Source: Deltaproteobacteria bacterium (lineage in GTDB: Bacteria; Lernaellota; Lernaellaia; JACKCT01). From it: a stretch of DNA of 64,000 nt. Both the position numbers and the translations under genes were made by a program. The notes under the pieces were generated by a model. That model worked only from the letters and a program-made list of their open reading frames with translations, made no database searches and was not told where the DNA came from. Each line of letters begins with the position of its first letter. Within the stretch, counting starts at the first letter, position 1. Of the stretch, positions 2,888 through 62,128 are shown piece by piece. The stretch spans positions 13,073 to 77,072 of the forward strand of contig JADLEX010000047.1 in the NCBI GenBank assembly GCA_020845895.1, written 5' to 3'.

Positions 2888-3994
2888 ATGAATTTTGCGA
2901 AGGTTTCCGTTTGGCGATTCGCGATGCTCGCGACCTTGCTCGCGTCCGTGACGATCGGTTGCGGCGACGATGACGACGACGATTCCGAGCCCGGCGATGA
3001 CGACGCTGCCGACGACGATGTGTCCGATGACGATACGGAAGACGACGACACGGGGGACGACGACACGGCGGACGACGATACGACAGATGACGACACCGGC
3101 GACGACGACACGGCGGACGACGATACCGACGACGACACGGCCGACGACGACACGGCCGATGACGACACGACCGACGACGACACCGGTGACGACGACACGC
3201 AGATCGCGTGCGAAGACCTGATCACACCCGAACTCGTCGAGCCCGAGGTTGTGGAAATTCCCGCGGGGACGTTCACGCAGGGCAGCCCCGAGGAAGAACT
3301 CGGCCACTCGAGTCTGGAAGAACAGCGCGAGGTCACGATCTCGAAGGCATTCTACATGATGAAGTATGAGGTCACGCAGTCGCTGTGGCTCGCGGCGATG
3401 GGCGAGATCAATCCCTACCAGGTGGAGTGCGGCGACAACTATCCGGTCACGGTGGTGCGTTGGATGGACGCGGTCGAATTCGCGAACCTGCTTTCGGTCG
3501 AATTCGGCTACACCGAGTGCTACGAGATCGGCGAGACGAGCGCGACGTGGGACACCGACTGCACCGGGTTTCGCCTGCCCACCGAGGCCGAGTGGGAATA
3601 CGCCGCGCGCGCGGGCACCGACACGGCGTTTTACAACGGTGACATCGTCGATCCCGGCTGCGCCGACGAGGGGTTGCTGGACATCGCATGGTACTGCGGC
3701 GCGGGATACTCCGCGCATGAGGTCGGCCTGAAGGATCCCAACGCGTGGGGCCTGTACGACATGCTGGGCAACGCTTGGGAGTGGGCGTTCGACGGCTACG
3801 ATGCCGAGCCGTACAATTACGACCCCGCGGGCCCGGTGACCGACCCCGTCGCGCCGGGCACGTTGGCGCGCATCTATCGCGGAGGTTCGATGTACGCTTA
3901 CGCGGCCAACTGCCGCGCGGCGTATCGGCGGCTCGCGCTATCGACCTACATGGACGAGGACAACGGCGTGCGGCTCGCGCGCAACAAGCCGTAG
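2888..3994 (+). CDS. lipoprotein with poly-Asp/Thr linker and FGE-sulfatase (SUMF1/DUF323) family catalytic domain
   Basis: ATG at 2888 follows in-frame upstream ORF start at 2843; lipobox TIGC; ~75-aa (DDDTx)n linker; C-terminal domain has RWMDAVEF..., GFRLPTEAEWEYAARAG, GNAWEW, RGGS motifs characteristic of formylglycine-generating-enzyme fold. Confidence 0.75.
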   Translation: MNFAKVSVWRFAMLATLLASVTIGCGDDDDDDSEPGDDDAADDDVSDDDTEDDDTGDDDTADDDTTDDDTGDDDTADDDTDDDTADDDTADDDTTDDDTGDDDTQIACEDLITPELVEPEVVEIPAGTFTQGSPEEELGHSSLEEQREVTISKAFYMMKYEVTQSLWLAAMGEINPYQVECGDNYPVTVVRWMDAVEFANLLSVEFGYTECYEIGETSATWDTDCTGFRLPTEAEWEYAARAGTDTAFYNGDIVDPGCADEGLLDIAWYCGAGYSAHEVGLKDPNAWGLYDMLGNAWEWAFDGYDAEPYNYDPAGPVTDPVAPGTLARIYRGGSMYAYAANCRAAYRRLALSTYMDEDNGVRLARNKP

Positions 3995-7586: not shown

Positions 7587-8858
<1,272 letters not shown>

Positions 8859-8902
8859 GCGTCCTCCTCACCCGGCGCTTCCGCGTGCGCCGGGGCGGGA
8901 AT

Positions 8903-9523
8903 TCATTTCGCCTCGCCCGGCTTGTCGCCCGGCTTTTCGCCCGGGGGCCGCTGCGCCAAAACCGCGTCGATCACGCCGTAGTTTTTCGCGTCCTCGGCGC
9001 TCATGAAATAGTCGCGGTCCGAATCGCTCTTGATCTTCTTCACCGTCTGTCCCGTGTGCGACGCCATGATGCGGGCAATCTCGTCCGCGGTCTTAATGAT
9101 CTCGCGGGCGTGAATGTCGATGTCGCTCGCCTGACCTTGCATGCCGCCCATCGGCTGGTGGATCATCACCCGCGCGTGCGGGAGGGCGAACCGCTTGCCC
9201 GGCGCGCCGGAGGCCAGCAGCACCGCGCCCATGCTCATCGCCTGGCCCATGCAGATCGTCGAAACCGCCGGCTTCACGAACTGCATCGTGTCGTAGATGG
9301 CGAGCCCGGCCGAAACCGAACCGCCCGGCGAGTTGATGTAGAAGTGAATGTCGGCCGCGGGGTCTTCGCTCTCCAGAAACAGCATCTGCGCGATGATGAG
9401 ATTCGCCACGTTGTCGTCCACCGGCGAGCCCAGCATCACCACGCGGTCCTTGAGCAGGCGCGAATAGATGTCGTACGCGCGTTCGCCCCGGTTCGTCGAT
9501 TCGATCACCATCGGAATCAGCAT
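8903..9523 (-). CDS. clpP: ATP-dependent Clp protease proteolytic subunit ClpP
   Basis: 206 aa; catalytic Ser context [11 protein letters not shown], His motif MIHQP; tig-clpP-clpX order. Confidence 0.95.
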
Positions 9524-9675
9524 CGTGCCACGGCCCCTTCGGCGTTTTCGCGTTCGCTCACCGTTCCAGTCTCGAAACCAATCTAGCGCACGAACGCGAA
9601 AAAGCGAACACCTCGGCGGCGGCGCATTTATGCGTTCTCCAATGTTTTCGTCGTTTTTTCGGCGGACTTGACGAC

Positions 9676-11007
9676 TTATTCGTCCGCGTCGCCCGCATCC
9701 GGACCGACCTCGGCCTCGGGGGCGTCAACCCACTCGACGTTCGCGCGCTCGAGCAGGAAATCGACCGTCTTGTCCTCGACGATCTGGTGACGCAGGCCGT
9801 GCACCATCTCGTTCTTCTGGTAGTACGCGGCGAGCTCCGCGGCCGACTGCCGGTACGCCTTCGCGCGGTCTTCGTAGTAGGCCTGAAGATCCTCGTCGGA
9901 GCACGCGATGCCCTCGGCCGTGGCGATGGCGTCGAGCAGCAGCACGGCCTTGACCTCTTTCACGGCCTCGGGGCGCATCCGCTCGTCGTAGCCGCGCAGC
10001 AGTTCCTCCGCGCCGTCGCCCTGCACGCCCGAATACATCAGGCTGTAGCGCGCGCGTTCCTTCATCGATTCGAGCTGCTTGCCCACCATCGAATCGGGCA
10101 CGTCGAAGTCGTTCGACGCGAGCAACGCGGCGACGAGCTCGCCACGGTCGTGGTCCTTTGCCCGGCGCTCGGCGTCCTTCATCAACAGGCCGCGCTCGTA
10201 AGCACGCAGTTCGTCGAGCGATTGGTACTCGCCGAGATCCTTGGCGAATTCGTCGTCGATCGCGGGCTCTTGCCGCGTCTTGAGCGACTTGACCGTCACG
10301 GTGAACACGGCCGCTTTTCCCGCGAGGTGCGCCGCGCCGTATTCCTCGGGAAACGACACGTTCACGTCGAGCGTCTGGCCGGCGCGCGCGCCGACCACCT
10401 GATCCTCGAATCCCGGAATGAACGAGTTGCTGCCCAGTTCGAGCAGGTGATTTTCACCCTTGCCGCCGTCGAAGGCCACGCCGTCTACCTTGCCTTCGTA
10501 GTCGATCTCGGCCACGTCGCCCTTTTGCGCCGGGCGGTCGTCCTCGATCGGCACGAGCTGGGCGCGCGACTTGGCGAGCTGCGCGAGCCGGCGGTCGATC
10601 AGCGCTTCGTTCACCGCCGGCCGGCGGCGCTTCACGCCCACGCTTTGGTAGTCTTTCGGCGCGATCTCGGGCGACACCTCGACCACCGCCACCGCGCCGA
10701 ACGCGCCATCGGGGTCGAACGCGCTCGATTCGATCTCCGGCCGCGCCACGAGTTTCAGGTGGTGTTCCTCGACCGCCTTGTCGAGCGCCTCCTGGAGCAG
10801 GTCGCCCTTGAGTTCCTCCATCACGTGCTCGCCGTAGTGGCGCTCGATCATCGACATCGGCGCCTTGCCCGGGCGAAACCCGCGAATCTGGGCATGGCGA
10901 CGGACGTCATTGAGCATGTTCCGGCGGCCGCTCTGAACGCGTTCGGCATCGACCTGAATGTGAATACGCTGCTTGACCGGCGAGACGGCTTCGACCCGGA
11001 TGTCCAT
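9676..11007 (-). CDS. tig: trigger factor (ribosome-associated chaperone / PPIase)
   Basis: GFRPGKAP ribosome-binding signature near N-terminus, FKBP-like middle domain; start placed at MDIRVEAV (ORF continues upstream to 11118 but likely untranslated). Confidence 0.85.
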
Positions 11008-14720: not shown

Positions 14721-14760
14721 ATCCGTGACGGAGTGAAAAATGGATTGACAGGTCGTTTTT

Positions 14761-14774
14761 CGCGGCGTATTGTG
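14761..14774. promoter_or_regulatory. perfect 14-bp palindrome TGTGCATATGCACA ~30 bp upstream of DUF134 gene; candidate operator
   Basis: read directly; position relative to start 14803. Confidence 0.35.
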
Positions 14775-51018: not shown

Positions 51019-51232
51019 GCGGCTAGCCCCTTCGGGTAGAGAGGAAGGATTTTCCGGGCGAGACGCGACCCAATTCCATTCGCCCGCCCGTTCAATAACA
51101 TAGTTCGCCGCGTGCCGACAATTCGTTTTCGCCGGTTTCGCGCGGGCGCGCGTTTTGACACGCCCCATGGCCGCGACTAATATACGGCCCGTTTTCAGCA
51201 AGCCGCCTTTCGCGGCGATTTCAGGGCACGCC

Positions 51233-55179: not shown

Positions 55180-56808
55180 TCAAGGCAGCAACGATCGCTC
55201 GAACAGCGCGTACTCCCGGTCGAGGTGGCGATACGTCCCCGCGACGCTCCACGCATCGCCTTGCCCCAAAAACGCGGGTGCGTCGAAGTCCTGCGGCGCG
55301 ATCAAATACGCCGCGTCCTCGATCCACTTCTCGGGCGGGCGCAGCGTTTCCGACGCCCAGTACATCGCGAGGCGTCCGTCGGTCTCGAATTTCACATCCT
55401 TGATCTCGACGTTCGCGCCGTCGCGCAGCAGCGTATACGTCAGCGGAAACGCGAAGGGGTGCTCCACGTCGCTCACGCCAGTCGGAACATTCAGGAAACG
55501 CACCACGATCATCGGGCGCTCGCGCCCGCGCGCCGCGTCGCCGAGCCGCGAGCACACTTCGTCGATTTGCGTCGATTCCCACGTGCGCGGCGGGCCGATG
55601 TGCAGATCCTGCTGGTAGTCGAACGCCGTCCAACGCACGCCCATCGGGTTTGCCCACCAGCCGTTCTGATTAAGCCAGTCGCGGGGAATCGCGTTCGTCG
55701 CCATGCCGAGCCACCCCGCGAGCGCGACACCGACCACCGCGATGTGCGCACCCGTCCGCCATCTCGCGCGAGGAATCGCCGCGAGGCCGGCCGCCATGAC
55801 CGCCGCGAATCCGCACGCCCACGGGGCGACGTAGTGCGCGAGTTTCCAGTCGAGGCATGAAAACACGAGCCACGGCAGGGCGAAGAACGCCGCGAGGTGC
55901 GCCCGCGCGGGACTTCGCCGCGCGAAAACCCAGATCGCGGCGACGACAAAAATCGGAAACAGCCACGGCCCGAGGCCGATGTCCGCCACCGTGAACGGAT
56001 AGAACATCGCGTTGTTCCACGACCAGATCGGCTCGCCCGCGAGATTGCCCGCGAGCGTGACGCGAATCGCGCCACCGCGGATCTTGTTCGCGAAGTTCAC
56101 GCCGTACCACGTCAACGCAATCGCGACGGAGACGCCCGCCGCGATGGCGAGGTTCGCGAACTTCGCGCGTCGGCGCGTCGGACTCGTCTCGCAGATCATG
56201 GCGACGAATTCGACGAGCGACGGCCCCAGCAGCAGAATCGGGAAGTTGTCGCGCGTCAGCGTGCCGAGCCCCGCCGCGACGCCGAACGCGAGCGCGCGGC
56301 GCCGGTCGGAAAAGGACTGCGTTTCGAGAAGCAGACGAAACGCCATCGCCACCATGCCGATCGACGCAAAGTCGAGCATCGCCATGCGCGAAAGACCCCC
56401 CGCGAGGGGGAGCGTGGTGACGAGAATCGCCGCGACCACGCCCGCGCGGCTCGAGCGCGTCAGGTGTCGCGCGATGCCGTGCGCGCCCCACACGAGCGCC
56501 GCGTGAAACGGGATGTTCGCGGCGATGTCCACCTGAATCGACGGCCCGAAGACGTGATGCAGCGCCGTGGCGACGAGGTAGTAGAGCGGCGTATAAACCC
56601 CGCCCCAGATCTGCCCCGGGCCGTGCCGCCACGTCCACATGATCGTCTGAAGGTGGCCGACCTCGTCACCGTACAGCCGCGTGGCCATGTGCGACGTGAA
56701 CCACGCGTTGACAAGCGCCTGCGCGGCGACGATCGCGACGAGGGCGATCCACGCGCGGTCCGGCGTGGGCGCGGACTCGTCAGGTGGTGGGGGGATCGCC
56801 TTCGTCAT
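55180..56808 (-). CDS. GT-C fold membrane glycosyltransferase, family 39/83-like (PMT/ArnT-type), paralog 2
   Basis: multi-TM; loop-1 YGDEVGH motif; similar topology to 17611..19170. Confidence 0.6.
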   Translation of the reverse strand: MTKAIPPPPDESAPTPDRAWIALVAIVAAQALVNAWFTSHMATRLYGDEVGHLQTIMWTWRHGPGQIWGGVYTPLYYLVATALHHVFGPSIQVDIAANIPFHAALVWGAHGIARHLTRSSRAGVVAAILVTTLPLAGGLSRMAMLDFASIGMVAMAFRLLLETQSFSDRRRALAFGVAAGLGTLTRDNFPILLLGPSLVEFVAMICETSPTRRRAKFANLAIAAGVSVAIALTWYGVNFANKIRGGAIRVTLAGNLAGEPIWSWNNAMFYPFTVADIGLGPWLFPIFVVAAIWVFARRSPARAHLAAFFALPWLVFSCLDWKLAHYVAPWACGFAAVMAAGLAAIPRARWRTGAHIAVVGVALAGWLGMATNAIPRDWLNQNGWWANPMGVRWTAFDYQQDLHIGPPRTWESTQIDEVCSRLGDAARGRERPMIVVRFLNVPTGVSDVEHPFAFPLTYTLLRDGANVEIKDVKFETDGRLAMYWASETLRPPEKWIEDAAYLIAPQDFDAPAFLGQGDAWSVAGTYRHLDREYALFERSLLP

Positions 56809-57022
56809 CCTCTTCCGCGTGTTCTTCCCGTTTCTGTTCGATGACGTGCCGCTTGGCCGGTGAAATGATGGATTCGAGTTCGAGCATGGCGAGCGCCGCC
56901 GTGCCCGGCGACGCCTTCCTCTTTCGCCAGTAGATCCAACCGCGCGCCTCCGCGGCCAGCAACAGGCGGTCCAGTACGAATGCCGCGGCGAGCACGGCGA
57001 TCACGATCAGCGCGGTCCTCAT
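56780..57022 (-). CDS. small membrane protein (80 aa) overlapping start of GT39-like gene
   Basis: MRTALIVIAVLAAAFVLDRLLL TM helix then acidic tail; 29-nt overlap suggests translational coupling; weak. Confidence 0.35.
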   Translation of the reverse strand: MRTALIVIAVLAAAFVLDRLLLAAEARGWIYWRKRKASPGTAALAMLELESIISPAKRHVIEQKREEHAEEDDEGDPPTT

Positions 57023-57130
57023 GACGCACCCCGCCCGGCGCGAACCGCGCCGACACGAAAGCATAATCACGGACCGGCGCATTGGCCACCGGTGGGAAAA
57101 GATTTTGGCCCGCGCGCCTCGCAAGCCACG

Positions 57131-57162
57131 AAAAAAGTTCTTGACAATATGGGGGGGGGGGG
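57131..57162 (+). promoter_or_regulatory. sigma70-like promoter with G12 homopolymer in the -35/-10 spacer (TTGACA-atat-G12-cgtt-TATTAT)
   Basis: read directly; spacer 20 nt as assembled; 60 bp upstream of RBS AAGGAGAG + ATG 57224. Confidence 0.4.
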
Positions 57163-57223
57163 CGTTTATTATCGAAAAAGTCAAAACGGCAGCCGGGCGC
57201 AAGACCCGAGAAGGAGAGCGGCG

Positions 57224-57502
57224 ATGACGGTGCATATTTATTCGGACTTCGCGGCGGGCAACGACGCGTGGGACGGCAGTCAGGCCACCTCCGGCGGAGG
57301 CAGCATCGGCCCGAAAAAGCACATCAACGCCGCGAAAGCCTTGGTGACGAACCCCGTGGAGGATGAGGTCATTATCCACGTCGCGGGCGACACGGCAAAC
57401 CCCGGTAACCGGAACCCCCAGCGTCCCACAGGCACCAAGATCAATACTCTCATGGCAGACCACACTACCAACGATAAGGATGATTGCTATGAAAGCGCGT
57501 AA
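57224..57502 (+). CDS. short ORF resembling only the N-terminal ~60 aa of right-handed beta-helix (pectate-lyase-like) proteins; possible gene remnant
   Basis: YSDFAAGNDAWDGS...P..INAAKALV...GD.VIIHVAG matches beta-helix N-cap consensus; strong RBS; only 92 aa; low-GC. Confidence 0.4.
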   Translation: MTVHIYSDFAAGNDAWDGSQATSGGGSIGPKKHINAAKALVTNPVEDEVIIHVAGDTANPGNRNPQRPTGTKINTLMADHTTNDKDDCYESA

Positions 57503-58235
57503 TCATGCTATATTGTTATGTGTGACGGCCATTGCGATTCTTACTTGTGCAAAAACGAGCGCTTGGGCCACGTCATGGGCTGCAAGTACAGATGAGCTGA
57601 CGTCACCCTCGTTTCTAGCATCGCATTCCGTCGGTGTATTTCGTGGAACCGTTGTCTCGATCGATTATCGGACCGTTGCCACCCCTTCCGGAGGAAGTTA
57701 CGCGTATACCATAGTCCGATTTACTGTTACTGAACAGTACGCCGGATCGGATACGGGTCGAGAAAAGATCATCTACGTTGCTGGCGGGCAGAACGGCGAA
57801 CGTCGTCAGGCCATAGCTGGCGCACCTTCTTTTAACGTAGATGATGATGTTGTGGTTTTCGAAGGAAGTTCAAACCATTGGTTGTTCGGCTCCTCGTTCG
57901 GTATGCATGGGGTATTCCGATTCATTAAGGGCGAAACCGACTTGATCGTCCTAAACAACAATGGTTTTCCAGTCACTGCTATCAACAACGCAAACATTTC
58001 TGTCAAAGAGGACTACCGGTGCGAGTTGTCTCTGGATAGGAAACACTGTGACGCATGGACTTCAGCAGACGCATTGGATACCAAGACAACCAAAGAGCTT
58101 GAGCCCATGTTGGTCAACGCTACGGACTTCGAAAATGACATCCGCGATATTGCAAAAAACACCGCTCTGGCTCCCTCCCGGCCACTGTCGGGGACAGAAT
58201 TCGTCGAATTCCTTAAGCATTTTGTTGCGAATTGA
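57489..58235 (+). CDS. secreted hypothetical protein
   Basis: signal peptide MKARNHAILLCVTAIAILTCAKTSAWA; start overlaps previous ORF by 14 nt; low GC. Confidence 0.5.
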   Translation: MKARNHAILLCVTAIAILTCAKTSAWATSWAASTDELTSPSFLASHSVGVFRGTVVSIDYRTVATPSGGSYAYTIVRFTVTEQYAGSDTGREKIIYVAGGQNGERRQAIAGAPSFNVDDDVVVFEGSSNHWLFGSSFGMHGVFRFIKGETDLIVLNNNGFPVTAINNANISVKEDYRCELSLDRKHCDAWTSADALDTKTTKELEPMLVNATDFENDIRDIAKNTALAPSRPLSGTEFVEFLKHFVAN

Positions 58236-58259
58236 CACACTCACAGAACGAAGGAGGAA

Positions 58260-59405
58260 ATGTCCATGCGAGCACCTAATGCGAAAATCGTCGCGTTGTC
58301 ATTCGCGTTGTGTGTGCTGTCAATTCTATTGTCTCCACAATCGGCCGCTGCTTGGGTGTGGTGGACAATCGACGGTTGTCCGGTCGCTTGGGATGCGAAT
58401 CCGACAATCCAAATAGACGTCGGCCCCGGGGATTTTTATAATATGATTCAACGAGAGGCGGTGAGCCATCCGGCAGCGAGAATCGGCGCGGTGAACGATT
58501 CTTGGATCGACATCAATTTGGTAACCACGACATCAACCGGCTCGGATAACGGTGAAAGCGAAATTTGGATGGCACCTCTTCCGGATGGTACGCTCGGCCT
58601 GACGATGATGGATATCGGCGCATATTGCGAAATTTGGGAAATGGATATCAAGATCGCCGATGACGTCGATTGGATATGGGGCATTCCAACAACCGTCAGG
58701 GATCCGTATCCGTTTGGCGACGGTGGCGACTTTTATGCCAGACCCGTCATTATCCACGAGTTGTTGCACGGCGTTGGACTCGATCATACGACCTCTGACT
58801 TTGGATACATGCATCCCACTGTTTCGTCTGGTTCAGTGCTTTTCACAAATAGGGACGACAACAAACGCGTGGAGCCCGCGCCTAAAGAACGTCAAGGACT
58901 TCGGACGATTTACCCCCAAAGCGAAACCGAAACCGATCTGGCGATAGCAAACAACATTTGGCCGAATGACGTTGGGACTGGCGACATCAAAAATTATAAA
59001 CTTTGCAGACCCGCATATGGCTTACATTGGGCTGGCAAATTCGATCAATATTGCACGACTGCGGAAATCCACTCAAATCTCTGCCCTGGCGATTTTGTCA
59101 AGGTTCGCGTCCCCGTCATGAACTACGGCCACAGTTCTGCAACCTACAATTTGGAAATGTGGTTTTCAATCAACGACCCTTGGGGGTCCGGTACGGACCA
59201 GGAATCGCCGACAGTCCGCTCGGCGACGACCGGCGCTGTTAGCACCACACTCGTAGAGACCTCGTTTGAGATCCCATCGACCGTCTCAAACGGACAAAAC
59301 TACTACATAATCATGCGAGTCAAGCCGATCGCCAACGAGGAATCCACTATGAACAACTGGATGCCGATGCGCGGGTTGATCGGCATCGGAACCGAATGTC
59401 CATGA
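58260..59405 (+). CDS. secreted metzincin zinc metalloprotease (HExxHxxGxxH + Met-turn)
   Basis: signal peptide; VIIHELLHGVGLDHT zinc-binding consensus and downstream SDFGYMHP Met-turn; low GC. Confidence 0.75.
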   Translation: MSMRAPNAKIVALSFALCVLSILLSPQSAAAWVWWTIDGCPVAWDANPTIQIDVGPGDFYNMIQREAVSHPAARIGAVNDSWIDINLVTTTSTGSDNGESEIWMAPLPDGTLGLTMMDIGAYCEIWEMDIKIADDVDWIWGIPTTVRDPYPFGDGGDFYARPVIIHELLHGVGLDHTTSDFGYMHPTVSSGSVLFTNRDDNKRVEPAPKERQGLRTIYPQSETETDLAIANNIWPNDVGTGDIKNYKLCRPAYGLHWAGKFDQYCTTAEIHSNLCPGDFVKVRVPVMNYGHSSATYNLEMWFSINDPWGSGTDQESPTVRSATTGAVSTTLVETSFEIPSTVSNGQNYYIIMRVKPIANEESTMNNWMPMRGLIGIGTECP

Positions 59406-59431
59406 CAAGCGGTCTAAGACAGGAGAAGATC

Positions 59432-59722
59432 ATGAAATATGCCATTTTGACGGCGGCACTGACCATAGTTTTGATCGGCTGTGACAGCGGCGACGACGAT
59501 GACGACGACCAAGCCGCCTGCAGCGGACTGTCCCAGGAGGGCGAAGAATGCCTTGATCGATGCGGTGAGGAACGTGAAGCGTGCGAGAAGGATTGCGCAG
59601 AGACCGCAGAAGATGTTTTGATGTGCGAGTCAGAATGTGGGCCTGTCTACGATAAATGTTATAATGAATGCTACGAAAAATTCCCTGCCGCAGAGCAATG
59701 TGTGGACACAATTGCCACATGA
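59432..59722 (+). CDS. small Cys-rich lipoprotein with poly-Asp linker
   Basis: MKYAILTAALTIVLIGC-DSGDDDDDDQ; 12 Cys in ~75 mature residues (CxxxC / ExC pattern). Confidence 0.5.
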   Translation: MKYAILTAALTIVLIGCDSGDDDDDDQAACSGLSQEGEECLDRCGEEREACEKDCAETAEDVLMCESECGPVYDKCYNECYEKFPAAEQCVDTIAT

Positions 59723-60085
59723 GTGTGGCGGAAAATGTGAGACAGAAACCGCCACGACCGGTGCGACCTTTTTGGATCTGTACAGCAGCCACTTCAACCA
59801 AATCCTGAACCGGCGGCACGAGCGGATTCAGGTCGACAAGGCCATCGACGCAACGATCGTTGGGCAGAAGATTGGTACCGTGCCTACGCGGCTTGCCCTT
59901 GCGTCGATTGGCGCAAATCGGTGAAAGTCAATAGTCGCCCCTGAAAAATGGCATTAACTGGCTGAAATCACTGGACAAAATATCGTTTTCGTGCTGGTTC
60001 TTTTCACCGGGAATAAGGCATATCAACGCACGAAACCTGCGATTCGACGGGCTCACCACGTCCTGAGGTTCTCGAAGAACGGTGG

Positions 60086-60460
60086 GACGATTCCTAGGAC
60101 GATTCTTGACGATTCTTGGACGATTCTTGGGACAAGATACAGAACTCGTCGAACCGAACCGCCGGGCTACGACGAACGCGTGTTTCGCCGCGACGAACGA
60201 CGGCTTGAACGCGTAGCATTCCTTGACGGGCTTCCGGCTGCACCGCGAGTGGCGACGGCGGCACACGCAACGGCCCGCGCGCTGCCCCTGCGGCACGGAC
60301 GTCGTGGCGACAGCCCGCGCGCTGCCCCTTGCGGCACGGACGTCGTGGCGACAGCCCGCGCGCTGTCGCTTGCGGCACTGACATCGCAACGCGCACGGGC
60401 GCTTGTGGCACTGATGTCGCAACGCGCACGTTCGCTCGCGGCACGGATGCCGCAATAGAG
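60086..60460. repeat. tandem repeat block at right edge of low-GC island: 4x GACGATTCyTrG (60086-60131) then five degenerate 35-45-bp units CTTGCGGCAC(G/T)GA...
   Basis: read directly; opposite-strand ORF 59928..60506 here is not considered coding. Confidence 0.55.
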
Positions 60461-60529
60461 ATCCCGTAGCGCGGCGCGGCGATTTCCGCTTGAATCGCGG
60501 CTCCACGTTTTTCGCGCGCAGGATCGCCT

Positions 60530-62128
60530 TTGGCCGACGCCGCCCGACCCCGATACACCCTCGAAGCGGCCCTCGCGTTCGTCCTGTTCGCGTGCGCGGG
60601 CCTCGCGATCATCTGGGCCACACGCACGCACCTCGTCGTCGGCTGCGAATCGGACGGCCACTACATCATGGCCGGGTACGTGCGTTGCGGGGAGATGGGC
60701 CTGTACGTGCAGATGGGCAAGGGCACGTGGCCGTGGCTGTATCCGTTTGTCGTCGGCCATCTCGCGGGAATCATCGGCGCGGCCACGTACTGGGTCGGCA
60801 AGTTCGTGACGCTCGCGGCGGGGGCGGGGATCGTGGCGCTCGTCGCACACGCCGCGTCGCGCGAGATTCCCGGTCGCGCGCGGTGGATCGCGCCCGTCGT
60901 CGTCGCCGCCAATCCGCAGTTCCTGATGTATTCGACGCTCGCGTCCACCGACGTCTTCGCGGCGCTGTTCGTGGCGCTCGGGCTGTGGTTCGGCGCGCGC
61001 GCGGCGGCGCACGACGGCGGCCCGCGCGACGCGGCGCTCGCGGGAGCGGCCTGGGCGATCGCGGGGCTCGCGCGCTACCAATACGTGCCGCCCGCGCCGT
61101 TCGCCCTCGCGGCGATCGCCTTGGCCGTTCCGAGCGTCCGCCGCCGTGGGCCGATGATGGCCGGCGCGTTCGCGCTGGCGTGGCTCGGTGTCTCGTCGAT
61201 CGGTCTCGTCGGCGGATTTGCAAACCTGTCCGATGCGTTCGGTTGGTCGCAGGTGCTCGGGCGCGCGGAGAACATCCCCAACAGCGTGGGCGCGCTGGAT
61301 TGGTCTTTGAATTCCGCATGGCGCGTGGTGAAGGCGTACGCGCTGGCCGTCGATTTCGTCGCGTGGCACGTGGCGTATTACCCGTTGCTCGGGCTCGTCG
61401 CGTTTAGCGTGGCGGCGCGGCGAAACGTCTGGCGGCTGCGTCAGCTCGCGGCGGTCGGCATTCCGCTCACGGCGTATTTCGTGGCCGTTGGGTGGTTCGT
61501 GTCGATGGACGGCAACACCGATCTGCGCCGCGTGTTCTTGCCCTTCATCCCCGCGACGGCGGTGGTTTTCGCGGCGGGGGCCGAGCGGGTATTGCGGTCT
61601 TCCGGCGCGCGGTTCGTCGGCTGGCTGCTCGTGCCCACGCTCGTCGCGTTTCACGTCAACGGCTTTTTTATCGAATACCCGCTTCTGCATGTCTGGCCCG
61701 AGGGGCACCCGGTGGCGGCGCGGCACGCGTGGACCGGCCAGTGTCTTGTGCGCAGCATTCAGTGCCCGGCGCCGACGGAGGAGATCGAGGAGGTTCGCAT
61801 CGCGCGCGAGTTCGCCCGGCGTGAGCAACCCGGTTGTCGGCTCACGGTGACGAACTCGGTTCCGGCCTCGATTGAGCTGCCGCTCGCCTACGCGTGCCCG
61901 CCGGGCAGCCCGCCGTGCGAAAAGGACACCGGCCTCGACAACGCGGCGATGGGCAAGCTCGTCGAGCACTTCGCGTCGCGCGAGCCGGCGCGTTTCGTCC
62001 TCGAGTTTCCGCAAGAGGGGACGACGCGATTGACGCCTGGCGAGGCGATCGGATCGCGCGGACTATTCGAGCTGACCGAAAAGCCGCCGGTTCCCCCGGC
62101 GCGCGTGTTCGAGATCGATCCGCGCTGA
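60530..62128 (+). CDS. GT-C-like polytopic membrane protein, paralog 3 of PMT/ArnT-type glycosyltransferases
   Basis: multi-TM N-terminal half with CESDGHY loop motif, soluble C-terminal domain as in other two paralogs. Confidence 0.55.
   Translation: MADAARPRYTLEAALAFVLFACAGLAIIWATRTHLVVGCESDGHYIMAGYVRCGEMGLYVQMGKGTWPWLYPFVVGHLAGIIGAATYWVGKFVTLAAGAGIVALVAHAASREIPGRARWIAPVVVAANPQFLMYSTLASTDVFAALFVALGLWFGARAAAHDGGPRDAALAGAAWAIAGLARYQYVPPAPFALAAIALAVPSVRRRGPMMAGAFALAWLGVSSIGLVGGFANLSDAFGWSQVLGRAENIPNSVGALDWSLNSAWRVVKAYALAVDFVAWHVAYYPLLGLVAFSVAARRNVWRLRQLAAVGIPLTAYFVAVGWFVSMDGNTDLRRVFLPFIPATAVVFAAGAERVLRSSGARFVGWLLVPTLVAFHVNGFFIEYPLLHVWPEGHPVAARHAWTGQCLVRSIQCPAPTEEIEEVRIAREFARREQPGCRLTVTNSVPASIELPLAYACPPGSPPCEKDTGLDNAAMGKLVEHFASREPARFVLEFPQEGTTRLTPGEAIGSRGLFELTEKPPVPPARVFEIDPR

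Follow-up and report, generated by a model that had tools for sequence, protein, structure and literature searches.

The window, i.e. the whole stretch of 64,000 nucleotides of DNA that was analysed, has a GC content of about 65%, and not the 68% given in a preliminary description of the site. It contains a divergent intergenic region of 201 nt (57023-57223), in which a run of twelve G residues is found. To the left of this region, on the minus strand, lie a gene for an 80-aa membrane protein (56780-57022) and a PMT_2/GT39-like gene (55180-56808); to the right, on the plus strand, follow four closely packed open reading frames that overlap or are separated by gaps of 26 nt at most, and all four have good ribosome-binding sites. 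The features are listed in Table 1. Comparisons were made mainly with a GTDB species-representative MAG (L001) and a metagenome contig (L002), both of which align collinearly to the window to the left and to the right of the slot described below (approximately 84-91% nucleotide identity), and with a contig of the same WGS set as L002 that represents another gene neighbourhood, with ferritin-like and DnaJ genes (L003; JAANMU010012709.1).

Table 1. Features of the G12 promoter, the downstream genes and the variable slot (positions in the window)
Feature	Position	Strand	Remarks
Strain-specific variable slot, 3.37 kb	57091-60462	.	synteny breaks in two relatives
GC-rich hairpin, 9 pairs, terminator-like on the minus strand	57106-57128	-	function inferred only
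A6 tract and GTTC, abutting the -35 hexamer upstream	57131-57140	+	direct reading; present in L003 as A7GTCC
-35-like hexamer TTGACA, 6/6	57141-57146	+	kept in the homologous promoter of L003 and in L008
Spacer ATAT-G12-CGTT, 20 nt	57147-57166	+	sequence reading
G12 homopolymer (C12 on the other strand)	57151-57162	+	direct reading; proposed slippage-prone element
-10-like hexamer TATTAT, 5/6, with A2 and T6	57167-57172	+	sequence reading
Strong Shine-Dalgarno AAGGAG, 7-nt gap and ATG (57224) of orf92	57209-57226	+	direct reading; 5' UTR and start kept in L003
orf92 (MCC6157611.1, IT350_06120), 92 aa	57224-57502	+	chimera: truncated 5' part of a right-handed beta-helix family gene, continuing into low-GC DNA
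Low-GC gene 1, 248-251 aa	57480/57489-58235	+	N-terminal signal peptide ..TSAWA/TS, read by eye
Low-GC gene 2 (MCC6157613.1, IT350_06130), 379-381 aa	58260/58266-59405	+	signal peptide; metzincin-like zinc protease motif
Low-GC gene 3, 96-aa Cys-rich acidic lipoprotein	59432-59722	+	lipobox LIGC, read by eye

The motif has the layout TTGACA-ATAT-G12-CGTT-TATTAT, and its exact string, TTGACAATATGGGGGGGGGGGGCGTTTATTAT, occurs once in the window, at 57141-57172. The preliminary description had recognized the motif and its 20-nt spacer correctly but had placed them 10 nt too far to the left, the motif at 57131-57162 and the tract at 57141-57152. It had also considered a 12-nt mononucleotide run improbable by chance, and this judgement is borne out by the counts: approximately 0.06 runs of at least 12 are expected in the window from base composition alone and approximately 0.002 from a first-order model, and the G12 tract is the sole G or C run longer than six (660 G3, 139 G4, 38 G5 and one G6 run, and none of 7-11). 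Its length is the consensus call of a metagenome-assembled genome, for which an error of one or two bases is possible. Twelve bases lie within the range (about 8-9 nt or more) in which slippage is expected of homopolymers in phase-variable promoters, and a 12-nt G:C run is inherently unstable.

The tract is placed between a perfect TTGACA and a TATTAT hexamer, both read from the sequence and both kept in L003; the distance to the start codon of orf92 is 61 nt from the end of the tract and 51 nt from the -10 hexamer. The A6 tract upstream of the -35 hexamer may act as a proximal UP-element, a role that is taken from the E. coli consensus. The anatomy of the site is that of a putative sigma-70-type promoter with a spacer made over-long by the tract. 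Other readings of the site were tried and rejected: the alternative -10 hexamers at 17-18 nt (GTTTAT, TTTATT) have no A at position 2; no sensible hexamers were found for a minus-strand promoter that would use the C12 tract; SigB-like, sigma-32-like and ECF-like readings of the G-run/TAT region were inconsistent across the four promoters of the family described below; and for a MerR-type long-spacer promoter the 20-nt length fits the 19-20 bp of that class, but ATAT-G12-CGTT contains no dyad. No gene for a MerR-family or other regulator was found in or beside the slot. The predicted fold of the 5' UTR was no better than that of shuffled sequence (z = -1.3), and the search of the window for known RNA families returned only one tRNA, 30 kb from the slot.

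The hairpin upstream of the A6 tract is located between the G12 promoter and the divergent leftward promoter, and may serve as an insulator. Its sequence is not conserved in L003 (7/21 identical); in L001, L002 and L003 its place is taken by non-homologous GC-rich sequence that follows a conserved GAAA..TTT..GG motif.

For reference, the window was searched on both strands for TTGACA followed by TAnnnT at a distance of 14 to 22 nt, and three sites were found, all intergenic and each directed at a downstream gene. The two sites other than the G12 promoter (14745-14773 and 51155-51183) have 17-nt spacers. The orthologue of the latter in L001 (15413-15385) has kept both hexamers and the 17-nt length, while only 8 of the 17 spacer positions are identical. 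As both other window sites and the L001 orthologue are at 17 nt, the lineage uses the canonical TTGACA-17-TAnnnT sigma-70 geometry, and the site at 57141 departs from it only through the tract. The spacer of the L001 orthologue contains a G6 run.

Between the G12 promoter and the second gene, no other consensus promoter was found on the plus strand; the G12 promoter is the only recognisable one upstream of the four co-oriented genes, which would be co-transcribed. It had been described as the promoter of the low-GC island, which is upheld insofar as it is the sole consensus plus-strand promoter found, but it does not directly adjoin the low-GC block, from which a host-like segment (57224 to about 57421) separates it. 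Within orf92, GC3 is 0.83 for 57224-57421 (codons 1-66, host-like) and 0.56 for 57422-57502 (the last 27 codons, cargo-like).

By eye, two Sec signal peptides (AWA/T and AAA/W) and one lipobox (LIGC) were recognized at the N-termini of the three cargo proteins. The cargo products are thus predicted to be located at the surface or secreted, as is characteristic of genes behind phase-variable promoters of this class. For low-GC gene 2, translation probably starts at the second ATG (58266). Its product carries the motif HELLHGVGLDH, then a GYMHP Met-turn, which align to HELGHSLGLSH..LMYP of MMP-1 and represent the HExxHxxGxxH signature and Met-turn of metzincins. The scores against Pfam M10 (PF00413) were 16.8-19.9 bits and hence below the cutoff of 24 for the family; the PDB matches were all weak and all to MMP catalytic domains aligned on the motif (best E 0.28), and an AF2 single-sequence model, generated without an alignment, was unusable (pLDDT 38.9). 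The metzincin label for this protein is therefore a motif-level prediction only. Of the operon of secreted proteins with a metzincin that had been proposed, the export signals can indeed be read, while the metzincin is represented by its motif with sub-threshold scores. No known family was found for low-GC gene 1, and low-GC gene 3 gave no family matches; searches of the cargo proteins against Pfam, NCBIfam, PHROGs and PDB returned no significant family. A word-indexed protein search for homologues of the metzincin-like protein returned essentially the query alone, and the promoter module and cargo had no match in plasmid and phage collections.

The strain-specific slot contains the G12 promoter with the stub, the low-GC cargo and tandem repeats. 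Homology to the window is lost at 57088/57090 and regained at 60463/60464 in both L001 and L002. The slot is flanked by the small membrane protein and PMT_2 genes on the left, and by a second PMT_2 gene and LpxC on the right, i.e. by two conserved, divergent envelope operons. The L001 slot (7880-9717; 1.84 kb) encodes a 538-aa FG-GAP protein with a signal peptide behind its own TTGCCA-17-TAGTGT promoter, and the L002 slot (3199-3817; 0.62 kb) contains one 123-aa ORF; hence the three relatives carry unrelated cargos, all on the same strand and between identical, sharp boundaries. By reading of the sequence, the break in homology on the left falls on the -35 of the leftward promoter, which is conserved, and the G12 promoter starts about 50 nt inside the strain-specific DNA. 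No convincing terminal direct or inverted repeats and no integrase were found for the slot or for the low-GC block; mobile-element ends were rejected for the lack of terminal repeats and integrase, with the only tRNA 30 kb away. The sharp boundaries, identical in three relatives, and the unrelated cargo resemble replacement-type flexible genomic islets, and the flanking glycosyltransferase-39-like genes and LpxC may be compared with flexible islets between conserved envelope genes; this comparison concerns the context of the slot and not the tract, and there is no integrase, tRNA or terminal repeat at the slot.

Near its right boundary, the slot carries two tandem arrays. The first (60273-60455) consists of 41-nt units that grade into 33-nt units, in about 5-6 copies, is GC-rich and contains the palindromes GCGACAGCCCG/CGCGCTGTCGC; in the other (60085-60130), the 11-nt unit GGACGATTCTT occurs four times in a row. 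A search of the window with the 41-nt unit returned this array only, and the 41/33-nt array folded no better than shuffled sequence. Beside the right boundary, the second PMT_2 gene begins with ATGGCGGCTCC in L001 (about 7849) and in L002 (about 3168), where the window has ATCGCGGCTCC (60496-60532); the start of this gene is lost or shifted in the window, with an ORF only from the TTG at 60530.

An exhaustive HMMER search identified 20 relatives of orf92; word-indexed homologue searches with orf92 and with an alignment of its N-terminal domain returned essentially the query proteins only. The N-terminal residues of orf92 (approximately 60) match the start of proteins of 200-234 aa, as well as internal or signal-peptide-preceded domains of large proteins, and one full-length relative (P0006) scores above the Pfam Beta_helix threshold. 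The similarity within the family stops at about residue 60-79 of orf92, with no continuation downstream in any frame. By these matches and by its GC3 profile, orf92 is a chimera, in which the truncated 5' part of a beta-helix gene is joined to low-GC cargo. On viral contigs, the N-terminal domain was present only inside larger proteins, with no promoters to compare.

The combination of promoter and beta-helix 5' stub recurs in three organisms (window, 57224-57502; L003, 224-862; L008, 3001-3381). The truncation of the stub differs by copy, with approximately 66-79 residues retained in the window, 34-39 in L003 and 100 in L008, and each stub is followed by unrelated DNA, which is of lower GC content in the window and in L008; in L008 this DNA comprises about 1 kb, with a cargo unrelated to that of the window. 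This suggests that the gene body has been displaced repeatedly behind a retained promoter.

The closest relative of orf92, P0003, is encoded on L003, to which the window is homologous at 57097-57330. Between the two, AAAAGATTTTGG is identical at 12/12 positions, the UP-like tract and -35 block (57130-57146) at 15/17, the -10 hexamer at 5/6 (TAGTAT in L003, at the same offset), the 5' UTR at 38/50 (76%) and codons 1-33 at 92/99. The spacer is identical at 2 of 20 positions, between flanks of 76-93%; in L003 it reads GCCGG-T5-A-T8-C, and is exactly 20 nt long. At 88% identity, the probability of three or fewer matches in 20 is about 1e-13. Set against the rate of the UTR, the 2/20 identity indicates slippage-driven turnover or replacement of the spacer and not point substitution.

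More distant members of the family, from other organisms and with 40-47% protein identity, also have G runs between a -35-like hexamer and TATG..: the promoters of L008 and L010 read TTGACA-TTGCGGGA-G7-TATGTTATAGG, and those of L006 and L007 read TTGAAA-GTCC-G6-TATGATATAGG. Each of the two lengths, G7 (L008, L010) and G6 (L006, L007), was found in two independent assemblies, as is expected of tracts so short; this agreement does not positively indicate instability. In L008, the TAT-type hexamer TATAGG likewise stands at +26. Counted from the start of the -35 hexamer, the ATG lies at a distance of 83 nt in the window, 82 nt in L003, 84 nt in L008 and 75 nt in L006; the spacer to the first TAnnnT in the four family promoters is 10, 15, 20 and 20 nt, i.e. 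in none of them 17±1. The tracts in the homologous promoters (G6, G7, G12 and T5AT8) represent variation between species. The tract thus sits at a recurrently homopolymeric, fast-evolving promoter position, as judged by these alignments, which fits slipped-strand control.

We give an even chance to the reading in which the G12 tract is the slippage-prone spacer of a sigma-70-type promoter and its length sets transcription of the operon. Gain or loss of G during replication would alter both the spacing of the hexamers and their rotational phase, and the operon as a whole would then be transcribed at a level set by tract length, heritably and reversibly; the outcome would be population heterogeneity in a set of secreted and surface proteins. 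The promoter is part of a small module, with the 5' UTR and about 66 initial codons of a beta-helix gene, at the left edge of the slot. In a homopolymer survey of Bordetella genomes, the class of tracts 21-80 nt from the start codon was rated likeliest to overlap a promoter (PMC1891110), and the 61 nt observed here fall in this class. Tract length is expected to vary within the population.

The preliminary description had proposed a candidate phase-variation switch of this kind, in which loss of 2-3 G would give an optimal spacer of 17-18 nt. The homopolymers that recur at homologous promoters, with varying length and base, speak for the switch itself, while the model in which G12 is the OFF state is weakened, and with it the optimal spacer after G loss, by the 20 nt of L003 and by the absence of any family promoter at 17±1 nt (0/4). 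The 20 nt of L003 and the +26 offset in L008 look more like a constraint on length than like an OFF state reached at random. An ON length of G9-G10 (17-18 nt) is the textbook expectation; as L003 is also at exactly 20 nt, the assignment of G12 to OFF and G9 to ON is an assumption here. The 20-nt spacer may be a working geometry with an activator or, as the alternative to a selected 20 nt, all family copies may have been caught in silent states. No second copy of this locus was on record when four proteins of the window were looked up by exact sequence, and none was matched in a metagenome scan that used the two flanks of the promoter and allowed the gap between them to vary. A scan of a genome collection and a second scan of metagenomes returned only L001 and L002, one each, both without the whole segment.

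Of the alternatives, an unlikely but substantial one is that 20 nt is the working geometry as such, in which TTGACA with the A tract is, or overlaps, an activator site, and the G tract is a filler whose length is held and which is at most incidentally a switch. As would then be expected, the conserved hexamers are exactly 20 nt apart in the window as well as in L003, with unrelated spacers, L008 has its TATAGG at +26, and 82-84 nt from TTGACA to the ATG are kept in three promoters; a normal orthologous pair, that of the 51155 promoter, likewise keeps its hexamers and 17 nt while the spacer drifts (8/17), and Bordetella fim promoters have been modelled with more than 22 bases from activator site to -10 (PMC1891110). 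On the other hand, the spacer has no MerR-type dyad and the slot no regulator gene, G12 and T5AT8 are physically opposite and have no evident structural role in common, and the L006 spacer is 5-10 nt shorter. The 2/20 identity is, furthermore, far below the near-neutral 76% of the adjacent UTR and calls for slippage or replacement, and a G12 tract would slip and alter the geometry regardless of its function. A decaying or silenced relic of the disrupted beta-helix gene, in which the tract grew by neutral slippage after selection on the promoter had relaxed and without adaptive switching, and in which the low-GC genes are silent or expressed from unrecognised signals, is just as unlikely. It would account for orf92 as a truncated chimera, for stubs cut at different points in L003 and L008, for the lack of an optimal spacer in any family promoter and for cargo genes that are orphans, with no homologues found; but the hexamers, the UP-like A tract, the Shine-Dalgarno sequence and the start codon are all intact, and so are the three cargo ORFs, with strong ribosome-binding sites and export signals. 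In addition, agreement with L003 is closer in the UP/-35 block (15/17) and in the -10 hexamer (5/6) than in the UTR (38/50), which argues for continued selection on the elements of the promoter.

A very improbable explanation is that the tract or its length is an artefact of sequencing or assembly, i.e. dark-cycle poly-G, a consensus error or a mis-join. The contig is of the short-read MAG type, homopolymers of 10 or more are error-prone and there is a single assembly; yet both flanks of the tract are collinear, with identical spacing, with the independent contig L003, and conserved synteny resumes after the slot. A chimeric join at poly-G was rejected on the same observations of collinear flanks and of synteny that is back after the slot. 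Dark-cycle poly-G is usually observed at the ends of reads or contigs; a run of 12 bases within a coherent promoter would not be typical of it.

The slippage-prone spacer may be compared with known systems. In Neisseria meningitidis, porA has a poly-G tract in its core promoter. Like the putative G12 promoter, porA (poly-G) and opc (poly-C) have a homopolymer of about 9-14 nt between the -35 and the -10, before a gene for a surface or outer-membrane protein; they differ in that their host is a host-adapted pathogen, whereas the G12 promoter is from an uncultured, high-GC environmental-type MAG, is known as one consensus length in a 20-nt state three steps from the optimum, and would control a four-gene operon of acquired genes as its unit. 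To our knowledge, promoter-homopolymer phase variation is documented almost only in host-adapted pathogens. For opc, the length of the homopolymer sets promoter strength via spacing, according to the statement in PMC6389960 that refers to Sarkari et al. 1994, and a change in the length of the poly-C tract was seen in 5 of the 17 clones analysed (PMC6389960).

The promoters of fim2, fim3 and fimX bear C-stretches (PMC1891110), and those of Bordetella pertussis and B. bronchiseptica resemble the G12 promoter in the high-GC genome and in a long G:C tract that separates an upstream recognition element from the -10. The tracts of the paralogous fim promoters range from C7 to C19, and the active distance is larger than the canonical 17-nt spacer (PMC1891110). 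These promoters need BvgA and a conserved 'fim box', whereas no activator or box was identified at the G12 promoter; unlike them, the G12 promoter has a perfect sigma-70 -35 hexamer as its upstream element, and in one of its homologues the tract consists of T and not of G.

The class of mechanism is well known, and the switch at this locus is credible but unproven; if it holds, the points of interest are the G versus T tract at the same 20 nt, and a promoter-plus-stub module in front of acquired cargo in a hypervariable envelope slot. If it works, phase variation would extend to an uncultured, high-GC environmental-type lineage and beyond immune evasion, with the added interest of a control of horizontally acquired secreted proteins in a hypervariable slot among envelope genes, and consensus sequences of MAGs would hide functionally important heterogeneity in tract length. 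A further and decidedly unlikely reading is that promoter and stub form a recurrent expression platform, in which the spacer is kept homopolymeric in several uncultured lineages and low-GC cargo of foreign origin is recurrently installed downstream. Environmental bacteria would in that case gain a stochastic, tract-length-gated trial of acquired genes for secreted proteins, and the 20 nt would point to a non-canonical, possibly activator-assisted promoter with an output tuned by tract length.

One more relative of orf92, P0005, is carried by a contig from Logan SRR32934021 (L005), at the start of which (1-45) a run of at least nine T leads into TTGACA, with GATAAT 21 nt downstream; a long T tract beside the -35 element may be the reason why the assembly of this contig ended here.
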